Part shown: positions 5,473 to 38,861 of the stretch, one piece after another | Position numbering within the stretch: position 1 is the first letter of the stretch | How the letters are laid out: each line of letters starts with the position of its first letter | Sequence record: PZ166176.1 | Origin: a phage | Length of the DNA: 64,000 bases | Direction: 5' to 3' (one strand) | Translations under genes and position numbers: made by a program | The notes under the pieces: generated by a model | What the model was told of the DNA's origin: nothing | What the model saw: the letters and a program-made list of their open reading frames with translations, nothing else | Database searches by the model: none

Positions 5473-5700
5473 ATGGCTATCAATATTGTTCGCGTATCCG
5501 GCACCGTTGGCACTTCCCAGGTTATTGCAGTTGTAACAAACAAAAAGATTAATGATGCATGTGAAAGCTTGAATAAGTGGGCTATTGCTAATTTTGGGGA
5601 ATATGCAAGCGTCGAGTACATCGAATCCTACCAGGTGCCAACCATCAGCCTAACCGATCTCAACGTTGATCGCCTGTTATGCCTGGATGAATTAATCTGA
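5473..5700 (+). CDS. hypothetical early protein (75 aa)
   Basis: ORF after cassette. Confidence 0.65.
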   Translation: MAINIVRVSGTVGTSQVIAVVTNKKINDACESLNKWAIANFGEYASVEYIESYQVPTISLTDLNVDRLLCLDELI

Positions 5701-5708
5701 AAAAGATT

Positions 5709-5767
5709 GTTGACACGGGAAAGAAAAAGAGTAAACTGTATTACGTAGGGCGGCAATGGTGCCGCTC
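5709..5767 (+). promoter_or_regulatory. PeSL-like cassette
   Basis: TTGACA 5709-5714, hairpin gtagggcggcaatggtgccgc. Confidence 0.7.
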
Positions 5768-5790
5768 ACAACAGAAGAGAGATTATTACG

Positions 5791-6003
5791 ATGGCTAATA
5801 TCCGCACACTGTTAAAAAATGCAAGTCAAGTTTTATTTTCAGATGACGAGTATTTCAATAAAGACATTACAGGCGTGAAGAATATCAAAGATGTAAAAAG
5901 TGTTATGGGTATATATTGCAATGTTAAACGTGTTGGAACGTTCGGTGATAAAGTATTGTACCAATCAGGTGATTACAATTTTACTTTGACGATTATTTCA
6001 TAA
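5791..6003 (+). CDS. hypothetical early protein (70 aa)
   Basis: ORF after cassette. Confidence 0.65.
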   Translation: MANIRTLLKNASQVLFSDDEYFNKDITGVKNIKDVKSVMGIYCNVKRVGTFGDKVLYQSGDYNFTLTIIS

Positions 6004-6636: not shown

Positions 6637-6990
6637 ATGAAAGCACAAAATGCAATTAAAGAGTACATCCTTGCCGCTATCGATTTTAATGATTACGGTA
6701 TTACAACCGAAAAAGAGAAGATCGCGGAATTGATGCGCCGTTTTAATTCCGAGTACTGGTACCCTGATAACCAATCACGTTTTAATTATAGTATTGTTAA
6801 AGCACTTGCATCATGGTTACAAGGTTTGCCATCAAATATCAATATCGCTTTCGAATATTGGGAAATTGATCGTTTGTTAACATCCTGGGGATACATTAAA
6901 GAGAATAGCAGCGATGATAAAATCCAACGAGAAAGGGAAAATTATTGGCTTTATATTGCAGGCGTGATCCTTGCTTGCTCTTATGAATGA
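6637..6990 (+). CDS. hypothetical early protein (117 aa)
   Basis: ORF after cassette. Confidence 0.65.
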   Translation: MKAQNAIKEYILAAIDFNDYGITTEKEKIAELMRRFNSEYWYPDNQSRFNYSIVKALASWLQGLPSNINIAFEYWEIDRLLTSWGYIKENSSDDKIQRERENYWLYIAGVILACSYE

Positions 6991-7463: not shown

Positions 7464-7523
7464 TTGACACCATAACTGGACCTGTTAAACTGTATTACAT
7501 CAGGCGGGGAATAGTTCTCCACC
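7464..7523 (+). promoter_or_regulatory. PeSL-like cassette (degenerate hairpin)
   Basis: TTGACA 7464-7469, hairpin caggcggggaatagttctccacc. Confidence 0.55.
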
Positions 7524-7542
7524 ATACAAAAAGGTAAATATT

Positions 7543-7749
7543 ATGATCACCGCAAAACAAGAGAAAATCATTATCGACGTTGCAGCCGTTGCCGCTATTG
7601 CTATTATTGGATCTTATTATGATACCCGTTTCCCGTCGGCTATGCATGAGGTCGCCGCCGTTGCATCAGTTGGCGTACTGTTTTACGTTGGTAAACGCTA
7701 TTTATCACCAATGATTAACAAGCTGACACCGTGGAAAAATAAAGGTTGA
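7543..7749 (+). CDS. hypothetical membrane protein (68 aa)
   Basis: Two hydrophobic stretches (AAVAAIAIIGSYY, AAVASVGVLFYVG). Confidence 0.6.
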   Translation: MITAKQEKIIIDVAAVAAIAIIGSYYDTRFPSAMHEVAAVASVGVLFYVGKRYLSPMINKLTPWKNKG

Positions 7750-7800
7750 TCCTGTTTTATATTGTGTTATAGTTATCGTGTAGGGCGGCAATGGTGCCGT
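7746..7800 (+). promoter_or_regulatory. PeSL-like cassette (variant -35 TTGATC)
   Basis: hairpin gtagggcggcaatggtgccg 7779-7800. Confidence 0.55.
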
Positions 7801-7820
7801 GCCCCTTTGAGGATGCAATC

Positions 7821-8105
7821 ATGAGTAAAGCTAACACCGTGCTAATGTTTTCCCTGATTAATGATCTCGCTTACTTGTCCAACATGACGCAGGAGGGTAA
7901 CACATTAACGGCAACATTCACCAATAAGCTTGACCGAGTGATCATCATCTCACTGAAAACAGTTAGTAAAGGCTTTTACTCGTTAGCTTATCATTGGATC
8001 ACCGATACCAATGAGACAAGCCAGGACTATAGCGCCCCTTTCCCTGAATCAATGGCACGGGAGATCATCGCCGCCGTTGTAAATGATGGTTTGTTTACTG
8101 AATAA
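7821..8105 (+). CDS. hypothetical early protein (94 aa)
   Basis: ATG 7821 with SD gaggatg; the track start at 7791 lies inside the hairpin. Confidence 0.6.
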   Translation: MSKANTVLMFSLINDLAYLSNMTQEGNTLTATFTNKLDRVIIISLKTVSKGFYSLAYHWITDTNETSQDYSAPFPESMAREIIAAVVNDGLFTE

Positions 8106-31373: not shown

Positions 31374-32189
31374 TTATTTGTTTAAGTGGTCTTCGACCAT
31401 TTTAATGAAACCTTCATTGCTGAAGGCTGTTGCAGCTTTTTCTCGGTAAACAAAAACTCCACGATCTTCATAGAGAAGTGTTTCTTCGTAATTAACTCCA
31501 GGGTTAACTACAACCATTTTTGTACCCATACTAAGTGCAGGAAATAATTCCCAATTAAAATTGATAACTTGGTTTGAACACCCTACTACTACAACCAAAT
31601 CTTGCATGGTCAAAGTATCGAACAAGTGAGCCATATCTGCATACAAAGGTGCAGCCTCACCAAAAAATACAACATTAGGCTTCACCCAGTTATAATCATC
31701 TATGTTTATACTATTGTAACCAATATCTACCAGTGTTTTGTAATCTCCAGGATGCATACGGTAAACTACTTCAGGAAGATATCCGTGCACGTGAATAACA
31801 GAATCTCTGTCTACACCTGCTCGCTCTAGTAGATCATCAACGTTTGTTGTCAAGTTTACTACTTGGTTAGGATATTCTTTAAACCATTTTGCTATTTGAA
31901 TATGTGCAGCATTAGGCTGTACATCTTTAAGTTCAACACGTCTTTTGTTATAAAATTCGTGTGTTTTGGCATACAAATCCATACCGTTCTCGTCTACACC
32001 ACCGACCACTGGAAGATCTGGAGATGTTCTAACACGATAACCTGCCTGGAAAGCTCCAATATCGCAGACCTCTTCTAAATCATATTCTTCCCATAAGGCA
32101 CGACCACTATCGGTGTCTGTTCGGAATGTTCTAATCCCACTATCTGCACTTAAACCTGCACCGCTTACAAAAATCACTCGTCTTGGCAT
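31374..32189 (-). CDS. Sir2-family protein (CobB-like NAD-dependent deacylase or NADase)
   Basis: VIFVSGAGLSADSGIRTFR, ALWEE, NLTTNVDDLLERAG, VIHVHG match sirtuin/CobB motifs; the Cys4 zinc-ribbon module appears absent. Confidence 0.8.
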   Translation of the reverse strand: MPRRVIFVSGAGLSADSGIRTFRTDTDSGRALWEEYDLEEVCDIGAFQAGYRVRTSPDLPVVGGVDENGMDLYAKTHEFYNKRRVELKDVQPNAAHIQIAKWFKEYPNQVVNLTTNVDDLLERAGVDRDSVIHVHGYLPEVVYRMHPGDYKTLVDIGYNSINIDDYNWVKPNVVFFGEAAPLYADMAHLFDTLTMQDLVVVVGCSNQVINFNWELFPALSMGTKMVVVNPGVNYEETLLYEDRGVFVYREKAATAFSNEGFIKMVEDHLNK

Positions 32190-32723: not shown

Positions 32724-33377
32724 CTATACCAGACTTTGTAGGTATTTGTCAAGGGCTTCTTGATCGCCTTGACAAACATAGCAACGGAAGTCTTGAGCCG
32801 AAGGTTGTTTATTTTCATCCCAGTCCCAATAAACATTACCCTTATAACGTGAACCAGGAAACTCAAAAGAGGCTGTATGTGTAATGTATCCTGGGCCACC
32901 AGTGAAATCACAGAATGAGAATTGGGGGTATGCCGCCTTTACTGCCTCAATAAACCAAGCTTTACGATCTAAAGCTTCATTGATGCTATACGCATGTCTC
33001 TCCATTTCTTCCCACGTTTTCCAGACACTTCTCTCATCAGGAGAAAAGACAAGCCATTCTGGAAGGTATAGAGTGTCATAGTAATCATCATATTCGATCT
33101 CGGAGGCGCACGAAGCTGACTCCTCCAGTTTTGAGTAATCAAAAGCAGAATATACCCACCAACCATCTTCCAGTAACGCTTTGATAGGGACGAAGCCTTT
33201 ATCAGCATATTGATCGAATTGTTTGACACGGTGGCTTGTGCAGTCTTCAAACTCACATTCTAAACGATATGCACCTTTTCGACGAGCCTCAAGACCGTGT
33301 GTACTGAAAATAACAACACTTCCTTCACCATCATTACGATCTACTTGATAAGCAACCACTGGTTTTGAATTTGACAT
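32724..33377 (-). CDS. hypothetical protein (217 aa)
   Basis: ORF with SD. Confidence 0.65.
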   Translation of the reverse strand: MSNSKPVVAYQVDRNDGEGSVVIFSTHGLEARRKGAYRLECEFEDCTSHRVKQFDQYADKGFVPIKALLEDGWWVYSAFDYSKLEESASCASEIEYDDYYDTLYLPEWLVFSPDERSVWKTWEEMERHAYSINEALDRKAWFIEAVKAAYPQFSFCDFTGGPGYITHTASFEFPGSRYKGNVYWDWDENKQPSAQDFRCYVCQGDQEALDKYLQSLV

Positions 33378-34060
33378 TATTTCTCCTTATCTAGAAGATT
33401 GTTAGACAAAAACACTGCACGAGCAAAACCACGTGCGGTTAGTGATCTAAGTTGTTTTGTTTTTGCACTAGCTCCACCTAAGCTTTTCCAACCCCAGAAG
33501 CAGCCTATATGATCTACTGGTTTCTTCACTGGTTGAACAAAACCATTGCCGTGCCAAATACAAGTTTTCTTTGTATACCCATCACGGGTAGGCATTTTAG
33601 GATGAAAGCTTCCTTCCTCTTCAAACAAATACCCACCATACTCATAAGGATCAAAGTAAAAATCGGGTTTACGCCATAAGGTTGAAAGTTTACCTACTGG
33701 GTTCTCAATCATCCAAGGAACATTATATTTGTTACCCAAAGCTTCCACTACACGAATATTAGCTAAAGCTTCATCCAATTCCTCTGTGCTGCGTTCGTGT
33801 TTGCTACCACTACCTGCTAACATAGTGCAAGGTGGAAATCCAAAAATAATATCGGGTTTAGGTATCCCATGATCTTCAGGGTTGAATGTAGAATCTATCC
33901 AGGCATTCACATAGGTTATGTTTGGGTGCTCCATCCTAACCTCGTATTTACCGTGATCCCCTTCATCAGCGTTTACACAAAAACACTTGTGACCTGCTTC
34001 GGCATAACGTAACACCATGATCCCAGATCCGTCAAACATAGACAAAACTGTTTTACTCAT
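33377..34060 (-). CDS. putative DNA (cytosine-5) methyltransferase, compact
   Basis: ATG at 34060 with SD ggagggg; motif I FDGSG, motif IV GFPPC, motif VI ENPVG; no obvious target-recognition domain. Confidence 0.55.
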   Translation of the reverse strand: MSKTVLSMFDGSGIMVLRYAEAGHKCFCVNADEGDHGKYEVRMEHPNITYVNAWIDSTFNPEDHGIPKPDIIFGFPPCTMLAGSGSKHERSTEELDEALANIRVVEALGNKYNVPWMIENPVGKLSTLWRKPDFYFDPYEYGGYLFEEEGSFHPKMPTRDGYTKKTCIWHGNGFVQPVKKPVDHIGCFWGWKSLGGASAKTKQLRSLTARGFARAVFLSNNLLDKEK

Positions 34061-34466
34061 TACCCCTCCATTCAAGACAAGCCATAACTTTACGCCAATC
34101 ACTTTCTGTAAGAAAAATCTCGTTTGCTTTCTTCCACAAATCTAAATCGTGAAGGGTTGGAATACGATATGTTAGTTCACAGAATCTATGCTCTTCTTCT
34201 GTAATATAACCAAAATGCAGAGCCACATCGTGAAACCAACACCAACCATGCATCTCTCGAACAACATGGTCATGTTGAGACATTATTTTATGCCGTAAAC
34301 CTAACCAACAAGGAACAGATACTTTAGTAGTCTTTAATCTGTGATCAACAGTATTAGAGTATTCAATAATAGCTGTCAGTTTCAATCGTGCTTTTTCTAA
34401 ATCCTCATGCGTCACTTTGAAATAACTTTCTGAAAGATATCCACACATATTAATAACCTCCTTCAA
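34053..34466 (-). CDS. hypothetical protein (137 aa)
   Basis: Overlap-coupled ORF. Confidence 0.6.
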   Translation of the reverse strand: MKEVINMCGYLSESYFKVTHEDLEKARLKLTAIIEYSNTVDHRLKTTKVSVPCWLGLRHKIMSQHDHVVREMHGWCWFHDVALHFGYITEEEHRFCELTYRIPTLHDLDLWKKANEIFLTESDWRKVMACLEWRGNE

Positions 34467-35391
34467 AAGGCTTTACTACATGTTGATTAGCTTTAAAACG
34501 TTCAACATAGTCGTTTTCGCCCATGTTTTCATATAGCTTAATAACAACATAAAAGTTTTCCCAAGCATATTCCCTAAACCAACCACTAGTGATGGACGTG
34601 CAGACTTTAGATAAAGCCATTATAAAACTTTGCTTAGGGGTTGGACCTCCGATCTCTCCACCGAAAGGAATTTGTGAACGTTCCAAAGCCAAAACACACG
34701 CTTCTTCATAAACACCTAACAGGCGCACATGTTTTGGTTGAGCAAAAAACTTTTCTTTGCTGGTCATAACTTCACTTCCATCTTTCATATAAGATTTATA
34801 TGCCGGAGCATCCATTACCGCGATTGCTTCATGGATAGAATCATGATCATAAACATACGGAACCTCATCACCTTTAAAAAAGTCTTTACTTTTTACGTTT
34901 AAGTTCGGATGAGAGTAAGTGTATGTTTCTTTCTCACGCAACTCATAAATACTCTTAAGATTTTCTGGGATCTTTGCGCCCAGTGACCGCATGAAATGAA
35001 TATCTTTCATAGTTTTAAAGAAGTGAGGACTATCCTTTTTAAAACGATGACTCATTTTAAGAAGGTAGAGCACATCTAAAGGAGCAACAACATGTCCAGC
35101 GTAAGTTCGACGAACATCATCAGAATCTTCACAATAACTAATCAAAGCTTCTGTGCTATCTCCTTGAGAAGCAATATCGTATTCCAAATGTGCACCAGCT
35201 ATCATTTTGACATGGCCTTTGTTTCCTTTACGTTCTACAAGTTCAACAAACTCATCTTGAGAGAACATTTTTGATAATTCTTCCCACTCTTGTTCTGTAC
35301 ACAGGTAATCTAAATCTACACAAGGGCGATACAAGTCTTTTCCCATATCCATAGCATGAATTTGTAATGCACGGCTACCAATTAACACCAT
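34450..35391 (-). CDS. hypothetical protein, possible minimal nucleotidyltransferase fold (313 aa)
   Basis: N-terminal LIGSRALQ...CVDLDYL resembles a GS...DxD nucleotidyltransferase motif; weak. Confidence 0.6.
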   Translation of the reverse strand: MVLIGSRALQIHAMDMGKDLYRPCVDLDYLCTEQEWEELSKMFSQDEFVELVERKGNKGHVKMIAGAHLEYDIASQGDSTEALISYCEDSDDVRRTYAGHVVAPLDVLYLLKMSHRFKKDSPHFFKTMKDIHFMRSLGAKIPENLKSIYELREKETYTYSHPNLNVKSKDFFKGDEVPYVYDHDSIHEAIAVMDAPAYKSYMKDGSEVMTSKEKFFAQPKHVRLLGVYEEACVLALERSQIPFGGEIGGPTPKQSFIMALSKVCTSITSGWFREYAWENFYVVIKLYENMGENDYVERFKANQHVVKPFEGGY

Positions 35392-35421
35392 AATATTTCT
35401 CCTCTATTGGTTGATAGGTTA

Positions 35422-35474
35422 AGTTTATCAAGCTTCCAGATTCCTGTCAATAAAAAACCCGCCGAAGCGGGTTA
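35422..35474 (-). promoter_or_regulatory. minus-strand terminator plus promoter unit
   Basis: Minus strand: aacccgcttcggcgggtt plus ttttttatt, then TTGACA-N17-TAAACT. Confidence 0.55.
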
Positions 35475-35481
35475 TTATTTA

Positions 35482-35754
35482 CTAACACATTGAGGAAGAA
35501 GAGATCCAAACACCTCTTGTGGTTAAACCATTTTCATCCAACTCTACACCATAATCTTCACAAATGAAATCAATATAGTGATCTGCGGCTGGCGTTCCTG
35601 TAGGGTAATAAGTTTCTCCGTTACCGTAGTCACCTATCCAAGCTTGTTCCTGAAACTGTTCACAAAGTTCTTCAATCTCCTTACGAAACTTTCTTTGTGC
35701 TTGTTCCATCTCTTTAACTTTCTTTTTTATCAGCAGTTCGCCTTCAGACTCCAC
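35482..35754 (-). CDS. small paralog with C-terminal W-x-SS-x-C motif, member 1
   Basis: Ends GVWISSSSMC; coiled-coil-like N-terminus. Confidence 0.6.
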   Translation of the reverse strand: MESEGELLIKKKVKEMEQAQRKFRKEIEELCEQFQEQAWIGDYGNGETYYPTGTPAADHYIDFICEDYGVELDENGLTTRGVWISSSSMC

Positions 35755-35763
35755 AATCTCTCC

Positions 35764-35982
35764 TTAACAGCTACTACTGTGCCAAACGCCTTGAGAATTA
35801 ACGACGAAACCATCATCACCTTCACCATAACAAGAAGAGGATTGCCAATCTTCAAAACAGATTGCGTCATTTTCTAAACTAAGACCAAAACCAGCATCTT
35901 CAGCTTCTTTTGTAAGTTCGTCCACTAAAGCCATAATAGCTTGGGCTTTTTCAGTTAATTCTTCAACATTACGATCACTCAT
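35764..35982 (-). CDS. small paralog with C-terminal W-x-SS-x-C motif, member 2
   Basis: Ends GVWHSSSC; internal ATG (MSDRNVEEL...) taken as start. Confidence 0.55.
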   Translation of the reverse strand: MSDRNVEELTEKAQAIMALVDELTKEAEDAGFGLSLENDAICFEDWQSSSCYGEGDDGFVVNSQGVWHSSSC

Positions 35983-36296
35983 TAGTATTTCTCCTCTGGT
36001 TGGAAAACTGAACGACAAGCCCACATACTAGCTTCTTTTAAATGTTTAATAGCACAACGGATTTGATCAATACGTTCGTATGTAAGATCTAATTCTTTTT
36101 CTGTGCCGTCAAAAGACCCATGATATGCTTCACAATACTCTTCCTCTAAAGCTTTGAAGATTAAACCTAAACGCTCTTCTGCATCTTTAATAGCGTTAAC
36201 CTTGCCAATCTTATCGTCAGTATGCGCCTTATAACCTTTGATATCTTCGATTCCCACTTTACCTCCTATTAACAACTTAAAGAAGATGGATGCCAA
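35982..36296 (-). CDS. hypothetical protein (104 aa)
   Basis: ORF. Confidence 0.6.
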   Translation of the reverse strand: MASIFFKLLIGGKVGIEDIKGYKAHTDDKIGKVNAIKDAEERLGLIFKALEEEYCEAYHGSFDGTEKELDLTYERIDQIRCAIKHLKEASMWACRSVFQPEEKY

Positions 36297-36466
36297 TTTG
36301 TTCCAGTATTCTCATTTTCATCTTCTGGATCATAATAGCCACCCATCCCATATTCAGGGGAGAAACGGAAACCTTTACCAGTCTCATCTGCTAACTGCTC
36401 TGCTTCCGCTAAAGCCTCATAAGCTGCTTTTACGGCTTCTTCTACTGTTTTAAACTTGGTCGTCAT
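36269..36466 (-). CDS. small paralog with C-terminal W-x-SS-x-C motif, member 3
   Basis: Ends NWHPSSLSC. Confidence 0.55.
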   Translation of the reverse strand: MTTKFKTVEEAVKAAYEALAEAEQLADETGKGFRFSPEYGMGGYYDPEDENENTGTNWHPSSLSC

Positions 36467-36740
36467 AAAATTTCTCCTCTCCTAAAGACATGTTGACATG
36501 AAATGCACGATATGTAAATTCGTTGTCCGTTGTGTTTGAATAAAACTCAAATTGAACAACACCGTCTTGAGAAGACAGATACATGCCAATTTGAACTGTT
36601 CCTTCTGGTACCAGGTAAGCATACTCTGGACGTAGTGTTACATTGTAAAAATAAAGTTCCCCAACACCCATTTCATCCCAAGCTTCCCAAGCGGTAACGA
36701 AGTTACTTTCAAAACTTGTTACTGATCCGAACTCTGCCAT
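36450..36740 (-). CDS. hypothetical protein (96 aa)
   Basis: ORF. Confidence 0.6.
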   Translation of the reverse strand: MAEFGSVTSFESNFVTAWEAWDEMGVGELYFYNVTLRPEYAYLVPEGTVQIGMYLSSQDGVVQFEFYSNTTDNEFTYRAFHVNMSLGEEKFYDDQV

Positions 36741-37231
36741 AAAACCTCCTCAATCTTGTAGTTTGACTCCATCTCCAACACATTTCCACGAACGTCTCTC
36801 CGAAGAAAGGCATAAGCTTTATTAGGTATTGTAGACTCATATTTAACCATATCTGGTACAGCAAAAGATACTACTACTCCTGCTGGGCTTCTGTCAAGAG
36901 CCTTATTAATATTTCTAAGGATATCGTTAGCCAAGATTTCTGCCAATTCTCCAAGAACGGTTTCGGTTATATCTTTATATCCCATTAAGTATTTGTTGAT
37001 ATCTTTCATCTCTGTATTGTTCAGAGTATAATCCAAAGGATAGAAATTCAAAGCGGAGTCACTTTTATGTGTCCACATGAAATGCACCCGATCCGAGCAG
37101 AATCGTAACCCTCTTTGAAGAATATCTTCTACAACAGGCAGAATTTCTTTTGTCACATCATTAACCATGTTGTAATCTAAGATTTCTGCCAAGTTTGTTC
37201 TTTGTTCACCACGTTTACGTTTAGGAATCAC
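36719..37231 (-). CDS. hypothetical protein (170 aa)
   Basis: ORF. Confidence 0.6.
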   Translation of the reverse strand: MIPKRKRGEQRTNLAEILDYNMVNDVTKEILPVVEDILQRGLRFCSDRVHFMWTHKSDSALNFYPLDYTLNNTEMKDINKYLMGYKDITETVLGELAEILANDILRNINKALDRSPAGVVVSFAVPDMVKYESTIPNKAYAFLRRDVRGNVLEMESNYKIEEVLWQSSDQ

Positions 37232-37802
37232 TTGTTATTGCCCTCATTACCAAAGGTCGTAGAAAATCGTAAATCTCTTGTTTTGTTTTCCCACGAATGT
37301 TTAAACAAGGAACATTATTGGCTTTAGCTATCTTCCAAGCCGTAGCTGTTCCACCTTTTGCATCTCCATGTTTATCAGTATTAGCACAAGCCAACAAGAA
37401 ACATGATGGAGCAGGATTCTCCAAATCTCTACCTAACACTTGATGCACATTACGTTGGTGCAATTTTCTAGCACCCTGCTTAAGCTTTTCATAGGCTGGG
37501 TGAACATCTTTGATCCATTGCACAGAAATAGCATAGTTCATTGTATCTGGTTTTGCAAGAACAATAACATCCCCTGGAATCTGATTACCTTTGAAATTTT
37601 CCCAAGGAACATAAATCTCCTTGTTAGTAGGATTTTCAGACTCTTGGACACCTGTTTCAAAAGCAGAATCACTACCCTCTGCCTTCCCAGACCTTAATTT
37701 AAACCCAAGGTTTGAAAGCCATTTCCCTATGCCTACCATCAAAGCCCACTCTTCTTCGGATATGTCTCTACTTCCAACTCCCGTATAGAACAGTTCTGCC
37801 AT
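37221..37802 (-). CDS. possible SLOG/DprA-LOG-like Rossmann-fold protein
   Basis: ATG at 37802 with SD gaggtga; motifs YTGVGSRD and RSGKAEGSDSAFETG resemble the GxGxR / SGGAxGxD signature; weak. Confidence 0.4.
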   Translation of the reverse strand: MAELFYTGVGSRDISEEEWALMVGIGKWLSNLGFKLRSGKAEGSDSAFETGVQESENPTNKEIYVPWENFKGNQIPGDVIVLAKPDTMNYAISVQWIKDVHPAYEKLKQGARKLHQRNVHQVLGRDLENPAPSCFLLACANTDKHGDAKGGTATAWKIAKANNVPCLNIRGKTKQEIYDFLRPLVMRAITSDS

Positions 37803-37809
37803 AATCACC

Positions 37810-38118
37810 TCAACAAGTAATTTCAAAAGGTGTATAGGGTTCCGTATTTCTCATGATCCAAGGACTGCTAGGATTGCTCGGATCATAAGGGCCAAAAGGT
37901 TTTATGGTAGGTTGTGTTTCTTTCTTCTGAATCTCTTCAAAAATACGACGAAGTTCAGAATATTCTTGATCCACCATAAGATTCGGTGCATCTGATTCTA
38001 CAGCTTGCAGGTTATCTTCCTTAAGAACAATCTCACGAACAAGATTAACATCTTCTGTTTCTAAGATAACTTCTTTACGGATATTGCCTACACTTTGAAT
38101 AATTGTAATCTTATACAT
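37810..38118 (-). CDS. hypothetical protein (102 aa)
   Basis: ORF. Confidence 0.6.
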   Translation of the reverse strand: MYKITIIQSVGNIRKEVILETEDVNLVREIVLKEDNLQAVESDAPNLMVDQEYSELRRIFEEIQKKETQPTIKPFGPYDPSNPSSPWIMRNTEPYTPFEITC

Positions 38119-38861
38119 TAATCCTCCTCAAGAGTTGAATAAAATTGAAGACCACCGTCCATATCGAAATAAGCAAATGTTAAGTTATTATTGAACACAG
38201 ATCCAGTATCCATATAAACACGATTCGCATTGATAATAGGTGTTTTTACATAAGAGTGTCCATGAAACACATAATCCACACCCATCACAACAGGAAGTTT
38301 CATTCCCTCTTTAGCACAATCCACCATATCTCTGTCCCACATAAGTGCTTCAGCAAAACGGTTTTCCTGTGTTTTTGTCATCTTCGAAGTGTATTCTGGA
38401 ATATCTGTTACAGGGAGATATTCCAAAGAAGACGGATACCCACCATGAATAAACGCAAGTTTCATGCCTCTGTAGTTAACAATGAGAACAACAGGTAAAT
38501 CTTCTGTCATCATTGCTAAGGCTGTAGCTCCTTCTTCACCACATTCTTCAAGGACCGTATATCCTCCATTTTGATACCAACACTCGAAGTAGCTACGATC
38601 TCCTTCCAGCATACCTTTAATCATCATGTCTTCATGATTTCCACGAATAGCGTAGCGATTGTGTTTACGAGTAAATTCTAAAACACAACGAAAGTTTTGC
38701 TTTCCACGGTCAGTAAGATCTCCTAGAGATACAACCACATCTGTATCTCGGATACCTAACTTTGCCTTTCCTTTTTCATACAAATTATAACAACCGTGTA
38801 GATCTCCAATTATAAAAAGATCTTGATCGCTTTTAACAGTAATTTCTCTGTGTATGATCAC
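38118..38861 (-). CDS. Ser/Thr protein phosphatase (calcineurin-like metallophosphoesterase)
   Basis: GDLHG, GDLTDRG, GNHE, GH motifs in canonical order. Confidence 0.8.
   Translation of the reverse strand: MIIHREITVKSDQDLFIIGDLHGCYNLYEKGKAKLGIRDTDVVVSLGDLTDRGKQNFRCVLEFTRKHNRYAIRGNHEDMMIKGMLEGDRSYFECWYQNGGYTVLEECGEEGATALAMMTEDLPVVLIVNYRGMKLAFIHGGYPSSLEYLPVTDIPEYTSKMTKTQENRFAEALMWDRDMVDCAKEGMKLPVVMGVDYVFHGHSYVKTPIINANRVYMDTGSVFNNNLTFAYFDMDGGLQFYSTLEED

Follow-up and report, generated by a model that had tools for sequence, protein, structure and literature searches.

In the MntA-HepT system, the small partner protein of a polymerase-beta-type nucleotidyltransferase (NTase) serves as the acceptor of the nucleotide: HepT, a HEPN RNase with an R-x4-6-H motif, is poly-AMPylated on a tyrosine by MntA, a minimal NTase which thereby provides a precedent for the nucleotidylylation of proteins by this fold. 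Among the ribosomally synthesised and post-translationally modified peptides (RiPPs), lanthipeptides contain S-x-x-C rings. Carriers of the HypE type end in a cysteine. The closest described system to the locus analysed here is MenA1-MenT1 (MenAT/AbiE, DUF1814), with which it shares the fold of the enzyme and a small protein encoded upstream of the NTase. The locus consists of three small genes, designated A, B and C, within positions 35,482 to 36,466 of a 64,000-nucleotide stretch of phage DNA (record PZ166176.1; the whole stretch is referred to as the window) from a Phapecoctavirus, a phAPEC8-like Escherichia coli myophage with a genome of about 150 kb. An earlier note, made from the sequence alone, had described the three products as paralogs sharing a C-terminal Trp-Ser-Ser-Cys tail. 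Profile comparisons bore this out: A, B and C are true paralogs within a large phage-restricted family, PHROG 899. We also found that this family and an NTase encoded downstream of it form a conserved module whose components, to judge from their gene order, probably work together.

Comparison with the above systems revealed likenesses and clear differences. MenA1 is made of two helices (PMC10435456), whereas the small phage proteins are predicted to combine one helix with three strands and have an invariant Ser-Ser-Cys end. They occur in one to six copies against the single MenA1, no homology of A, B or C to MenA1 or COG5340/AbiEi was found, and the small proteins are phage-only and the enzyme essentially so, unlike MenAT, which resides on bacterial chromosomes or plasmids as a stress or defence module. 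With respect to MntA-HepT, no HEPN match in Pfam and no R-x4-6-H motif was visible in the sequences of A, B and C, the acceptor proposed below is a C-terminal serine or cysteine, and gene order and copy number are different. Tandem precursor-like genes upstream of one enzyme, an S-x-x-C end and an invariant terminal cysteine recall RiPP arrays and HypE. AlphaFold2 predicts for the small proteins a compact folded domain, with the motif partly in a strand, which would differ from the leader and released, unstructured core of RiPP precursors. Among the neighbours scanned between 31.4 and 39.8 kb, which yielded only Sir2, DUF7275/7277, DprA-like and unknown families, there was no LanB/M/KC/D-like, radical-SAM or HypF-like gene; the scan passed over the ORFs at 33377-34102 and 38118-38861, which correspond in related phages to a DNA methyltransferase and a phosphatase, neither of which is a maturase family. 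The PHROG 899 entry itself carries no function, no description of the motif and no link to an NTase, and the family has no Pfam model.

A phage family with a conserved C-terminal tail

The three open reading frames (ORFs) were found on the minus strand with exactly the low coordinates and translations that had been given for them, ending in GVWISSSSMC (A), GVWHSSSC (B) and NWHPSSLSC (C), and the acidic character ascribed to the products was evident from isoelectric points of 4.40, 4.05 and 4.31, respectively. Good ribosome-binding sites precede all three (GGAGAGGAG in the case of C); B was assigned 72 aa from an ATG behind GAGGAG, an upstream GTG giving 86 aa instead. Identity over the region 34400-37900 amounts to 99.7% with phage vB_EcoM-Ro121c4YLVW, and 65 phage records show 95% or more. 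All genes of this region are on the minus strand and nearly all are annotated as "hypothetical protein" in related genomes, A, B and C being annotated as genes in at least 60 related phages. Of the 849 stop-to-stop ORFs with 35 aa or more that the six frames of the whole window contain, only A, B and C had a tail of the W..SS..C type. B contains in addition an internal WQSSSC, absent from the earlier note, which brings the motif to four copies in three proteins. The tail serines are specified by TCN codons (TCT, TCC or TCA) in A and C and by AGY codons (AGT or AGC) in B, so that selection acts at the level of the peptide and not of a nucleotide motif.

Since pairwise BLASTP comparisons among A, B and C were non-significant, their paralogy is grounded in profiles. 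All three matched PHROG 899 over one profile region (148-221), a hidden Markov model (HMM) of our own for the family recovered A (E 5.9e-23) and C (E 1.1e-24), and an hhalign comparison of the B-type with the A/C-type profile gave 92% probability (E 5.7e-7) over the N-terminal half only, that is, the helix and the first strand. Scans of Pfam, NCBIfam and PADLOC with A, B and C returned no meaningful match, and word-indexed searches returned 82 clusters, all of them without a name. The size of the family was then taken from HMMER, run exhaustively against 1.84 billion representatives, which retrieved 928 proteins or clusters at E<=1e-3; the count at E<=1e-10 was 353. Among the 142 new representatives listed from this search, 140 had the exact ending W-x-[S/P/A]-S-S-x-x-Cys-COOH; position by position, the tryptophan at -7 was present in 141, the serines at -4 and -3 in 142 and 141, and the final cysteine in 140. 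YG.GG was found in 126 of the same 142, whose median length was 84 aa. The tail is a genuine feature under strong selection.

The common architecture consists of a variable N-terminal helix ending in ..AE.IADE.G..F.F, followed by YGMGG.Y, a variable acidic linker and G.W.SSS..C-COOH, with G, Y, W, S, S and C as the invariant columns over the A and C types. The eight-residue form of the tail is exact in A and C, and B represents a shorter subtype, W-x-S-S-S-C, which it carries twice; the hairpin motif YG.G..Y is likewise kept in A and C and has a variant form in B (Table 1). The smallest members have 63-65 aa and the longer ones contain no recognisable fused domain. A structure prediction, as the earlier note had proposed, was obtained for C with AlphaFold2 (predicted local distance difference test score, pLDDT, 90.6): the model has one helix, spanning residues 8-29 and in agreement with the helical N-terminal half that had been described, and a three-stranded sheet. 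No structural relative of this model was found in PDB, and sequence and profile searches of PDB with the small family returned coiled-coil noise only. The searchable literature held nothing on DUF7275, PHROG 899 or the motif. The three genes are ordinary members of a family that is catalogued but uncharacterised, whereas the module itself appears to be undescribed.

Decayed or extended tails occur in a few of the array members (L012 4898-5332, L009 4030-4206 and L008 3906-4322, with the endings ...HGWISSSICW, ...VWHNSNWSNSES and ...SDYGWNV), so the terminal cysteine is occasionally lost or internal. A metal site on this cysteine was considered and is unlikely in a monomer, as the family conserves no other Cys or His. 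A 276-aa protein of Pseudomonas phage vB_PsyM_KIL5 (BFVD A0A142IFN2) aligned to the full 65-aa model with a template modelling (TM) score of 0.72 and 35% identity, and could belong to the family as a fusion or as a multi-domain protein.

Linkage of the array to a nucleotidyltransferase gene

The array of the window lies upstream of the NTase gene and on the same strand, the end of A being at 35482 and the start of the NTase gene at 35391. The generality of this arrangement was examined in 80 IMG/VR loci anchored on the enzyme (41-78% identity to that of the window, some on contigs of about 360 kb). From one to five family members lay upstream on the same strand in 71 of these 80 loci; since many of the loci are related T4-like phages, independent events are fewer than the counts imply. 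Altogether, 206 members were located upstream of the enzyme and 6 elsewhere, and 152 ORFs with a strict tail were on the enzyme strand against 1 on the opposite strand. The gap to the enzyme start had a median of 311 nt, being of 50 nt or less in 15 loci and of just 8-20 nt in some. Several of the remaining enzyme loci had variant tails or B-type members. In a second set of six loci, anchored on the small protein, the enzyme was encoded within 0.5 kb downstream in every case, and in one of them (L004) the genes overlap.

Named phages show the same order. In the T4-like Citrobacter phage Merlin, gp146 (A-type), gp145 (YGMGG-type) and gp144 (B-type) are followed by an annotated terminator, one gene and the enzyme gp142; in Aeromonas phage 25, ORF059c and ORF058c are followed by the enzyme ORF057c; Pseudomonas phage PE09 (Otagovirus) has about six members upstream of the enzyme, and Acinetobacter phage LemonAid has three members with it. 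The genes flanking the module vary widely, among them rIIB, clamp loader/RegA, DNA polymerase, NudE/lysozyme and nrdD. As a separate observation, the gene that stands between array and enzyme in Merlin, gp143 (L002 4866-5153), ends in ...RKTECC and is not matched by the family HMM.

The enzyme was modelled with a pLDDT of 92.3 and had MenT1 as its closest structural match, the model and the sequence showing the predicted MenT/AbiEii NTase fold and its catalytic motifs. G5, S6, D26 and D28 (D26 x D28) were invariant in 45 homologues, and the two aspartates correspond to the metal-binding D41 and D43 of MenT1 (PMC10435456). At the sequence level the enzyme differs from MenAT: at E<=0.01 only DUF7275 and DUF7277 were matched in Pfam, with no DUF1814/AbiEii, and no PDB chain was matched by sequence or by profile. 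It is an apparently active MenT-like NTase. It was present in 736 phage records, whereas a screen of 185,579 prokaryotic species, each represented by a single genome, yielded 8 contigs of metagenome-assembled genomes, 5 of them with the small family as well. Its distribution is essentially limited to phages. Among Escherichia-phage records, 260 were retrieved for the enzyme and 618 for Vs.4, counts which suggest that Tequatrovirus lacks the module. No phage MenT-like enzyme with partners of this kind was found described in the literature.

A DUF7275 enzyme of 248 aa is also encoded by an actinophage, Streptomyces phage Wakanda (L010), with no W..SS..C proteins nearby. There it is followed by three paralogs of another small family (5597-5896, 6651-6962 and 7496-7849) which share ...F.K.GYY(D/N)SW....WDG..EV.P.E, and it may thus have a different set of partner proteins.

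Table 1 Features of the array, the NTase gene and their surroundings (positions in the window).
Feature	Position	Strand	Support	Parts
Paralog C, minimal family member, 65 aa	36269..36466	-	PHROG 899 E 1.2e-12; AlphaFold2 pLDDT 90.6	helix; YGMGGYY loop 36332-36352; acidic linker; tail WHPSSLSC 36272-36295
T4 Vs.4/Acb2 homologue (cyclic-nucleotide sponge family), 91 aa, between C and B, no family member	35982..36257	-	PF24729 E 2e-16; PDB 7uq2 E 2e-28	
Paralog B, divergent subtype, 72 aa	35764..35982	-	PHROG 899 E 1.4e-5	helix; internal WQSSSC 35830-35847; YGEGDDGF 35806-35829; terminal WHSSSC 35767-35784
Paralog A, 90 aa, GTG start	35482..35754	-	PHROG 899 E 5.1e-14	helix; YGNGETY 35608-35628; longer insert; tail WISSSSMC 35485-35508
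Intrinsic-terminator-like hairpin and T run, immediately 3' of A	35456..35473	-	terminator annotated at the equivalent position in phage Schickermooser	
Sigma-70-like promoter match ahead of the NTase gene	35422..35450	-	consensus match only	TTGACA-17-TAAACT with TG
313-aa DUF7277+DUF7275 protein, predicted MenT/AbiEii-like polymerase-beta NTase fold	34450..35391	-	conserved downstream neighbour of array	
Sir2-family gene, accessory block	31374-32189	-		
Putative cytosine methyltransferase, accessory block	33377-34102	-		
DprA-like gene, accessory block	37221-37826	-		
NinI-like phosphatase, accessory block	38118-38861	-		

Candidate roles of the small proteins

The near-constant position of the family directly upstream of the NTase gene makes this enzyme an obvious candidate for binding or modifying the tail. 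From this gene order and the conservation of the sequences, we infer that the small proteins are cognate protein partners of the enzyme and that the enzyme recognises their tail; the shared binding or modification site put forward in the earlier note is therefore plausible, and a candidate enzyme can now be named for it. Our preferred, but tentative, reading is that the tail is a possible acceptor substrate of the NTase and that the paralogs become modified, by analogy with the structural relatives of the enzyme. These transfer nucleoside monophosphates (NMPs) to hydroxyls, and what is invariant in the tail is two serines and the terminal cysteine, which supports a role as acceptor. The coexistence of several ancient subtypes side by side would fit several substrates for one enzyme, and a terminator between the array and the enzyme gene would fit an abundant substrate and a scarce enzyme. 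According to this proposal, the groove in which MenT enzymes accommodate the acceptor stem of tRNA would receive the acidic body, with the hydroxyls of the invariant serines (or the terminal cysteine) positioned at the D-x-D metal site, and the tail would be given one or more NMPs by the enzyme. Once modified in different ways, the paralogs could act on host targets in takeover or counter-defence.

A more specific version, which we consider quite improbable, would make the module a protein-tail modification system in which a serine of the S-S-S-x-x-Cys-COOH end is nucleotidylylated on several ribosomally made substrates, with a lanthionine-like ring or a protein-linked oligonucleotide as the outcome. 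In the first variant, elimination of the NMP and attack by the terminal cysteine would close an S-x-x-C (lanthionine-like) ring; in the second, the serine would prime a short protein-linked oligonucleotide. With either outcome, the chemistry would be new to the MenT/AbiEii fold, and the modified phage effectors would form a class of their own.

A number of observations weigh against the tail being an acceptor of the enzyme. The known MenT enzymes have tRNA, not proteins, as substrate (PMC10435456). In the AlphaFold2 model of C, the tryptophan of the tail is inside the last beta-strand, the final residues having a pLDDT of about 78, so the motif would be partly structural core and not a free tail; accordingly modelled, the tail may be partly packed instead of being a free arm. 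In B-type proteins, the internal W-x-S-S-S-C is better conserved than the terminal copy, which means that a free C-terminus is not always needed. No member was detectable within 6 kb in a few enzyme loci (e.g. L015-L017 and L063), and the enzyme can consequently exist without small proteins nearby. The linkage counts come from loci that are phylogenetically non-independent. Finally, a strong terminator-like hairpin and a promoter-like site part the array from the enzyme gene in the window (Table 1); a terminator is annotated at the equivalent position in phage Schickermooser, as it is between array and enzyme in Merlin. Array and enzyme need not be co-expressed, given these intervening elements, and may be expressed at different levels or times.

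The main alternative, in our estimate an unlikely one, is that the small proteins are MenA1-like inhibitors or regulators, antitoxin-like, whose tail would plug the groove or the active site of the NTase and so keep in check, except when or where its activity is required, a tRNA-modifying enzyme that is potentially self-damaging. A small protein gene upstream and an NTase gene downstream, overlapping in L004 or 8-20 nt apart elsewhere, is the layout of a toxin-antitoxin pair, and MenT1, the closest structural match, is neutralised by an adjacently encoded 68-aa protein that blocks its active sites (PMC10435456). Acidic proteins could also imitate the tRNA substrate, and termination after the array would yield an excess of inhibitor over enzyme. 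Yet for inhibition a single copy would suffice, and two to six ancient subtypes are usually retained together. Contacts of antitoxins typically co-evolve and drift, whereas this tail stays invariant over some 900 clusters, and the predicted fold is unrelated to that of MenA1. The module is confined to phage contigs, mostly large genomes of known virulent groups to which the logic of addiction does not apply, and some phages retain the enzyme without a nearby member. If the small proteins were inhibitors all the same, they would be potential ready-made protein blockers of MenT-type enzymes.

It is also improbable, though worth setting out, that the small proteins are stand-alone binders in counter-defence or takeover, such as nucleic-acid mimics or small-molecule sponges, with the YG.GG loop and the Ser-Ser-Cys end as their own binding site and with an NTase neighbour that was inherited along with them in a hypervariable accessory region. 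Their small size, acidity and multiple copies would fit such a role, as would their location among the Sir2-like, DprA-like, methyltransferase and phosphatase genes of an early accessory region; a member of a proven sponge family, the Vs.4/Acb2 homologue, is inserted in the middle of the array; and the glycine-rich loop, the two serines and the terminal cysteine, gathered in one compact predicted fold, could make an anion or ligand pocket. Nevertheless, the linkage to the NTase is maintained across groups as unlike as T4-like phages, Phapecoctavirus, Otagovirus and the contigs of about 360 kb, with differing surroundings, so that co-inheritance alone is unlikely. The Acb2 insertion is lineage-specific, being absent from the arrays of L011 and of the T4-like phages, and no Pfam, PADLOC or structural similarity to known anti-defence proteins was found.

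We regard as very doubtful a third possibility, namely that the small proteins are adaptors or specificity subunits whose conserved part would sit on the NTase while the variable helix and linker of each paralog direct the enzyme to a target of its own, such as particular tRNAs or host proteins. The invariance of core and tail, set against the variation of the N-terminal helix, the extensions and the linker inserts, would agree with such a role, as would the presence of several paralogs per single enzyme gene; the extensions, however, contain no recognisable target-binding domains, and the minimal members of 63-65 aa hold little beyond the conserved core. The remaining explanation, that the tails are alike by chance (the outcome of an alignment that the earlier note had named as a refutation) or that the ORFs are artefacts of gene calling, could appeal to the non-significant BLASTP comparisons, but it has a negligible probability and is excluded by the profile matches, the 140 of 142 independent cluster representatives with the tail, the sole occurrences in the window, the ribosome-binding sites and the annotation in related phages.

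Whatever the role of the tail, about 900 clusters carry a C-terminal signature that is exceptionally rigid for phage dark matter, and the module offers a testable handle on several hundred "hypothetical protein" genes. The bacterial cousins of the enzyme, MenT and AbiEii, are tRNA-poisoning toxins used against phage. Should the small proteins prove to be substrates, as we tentatively prefer, a new protein modification would be at work in large, mostly virulent phages, including T4-like and therapeutic coliphage genera.

Surroundings of the module

The gene between C and B encodes a homologue of T4 Vs.4/Acb2, the cyclic-nucleotide sponge directed against CBASS. It resembles A, B and C in being a small phage protein of similar size encoded within the array; A, B and C have no PF24729 match and their predicted fold differs. 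The collinear array of L011, a related 153-kb phage, has C, B and A contiguous, without the Acb2 gene, and vs.4 of T4-like phages sits elsewhere, outside the arrays. From this comparison of gene orders, the Acb2 gene is a recent, lineage-specific insertion into the array.

The accessory block of the module, all on the minus strand, includes the Sir2-family, methyltransferase, DprA-like and phosphatase genes listed in Table 1. Similar neighbours (Sir2, Metallophos) were observed beside the module in L102. An ORF of 170 aa (36719-37231, minus strand), whose product ends in ...EEVLWQSSDQ, was considered as a decayed fourth member and rejected: its orthologues in L011-L014 end otherwise and the family HMM gave no match, the resemblance being a coincidence. 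Lastly, the 102-aa protein encoded at 37810-38118 on the minus strand, of PHROG 15301, ends in ...PFEITC, and its orthologues end in ...NPFEITC (L011 3531-3824) and ...TPFTVTC (L012 2613-2885); the region may thus hold, besides PHROG 899, another and unrelated family in which a C-terminal cysteine is conserved.

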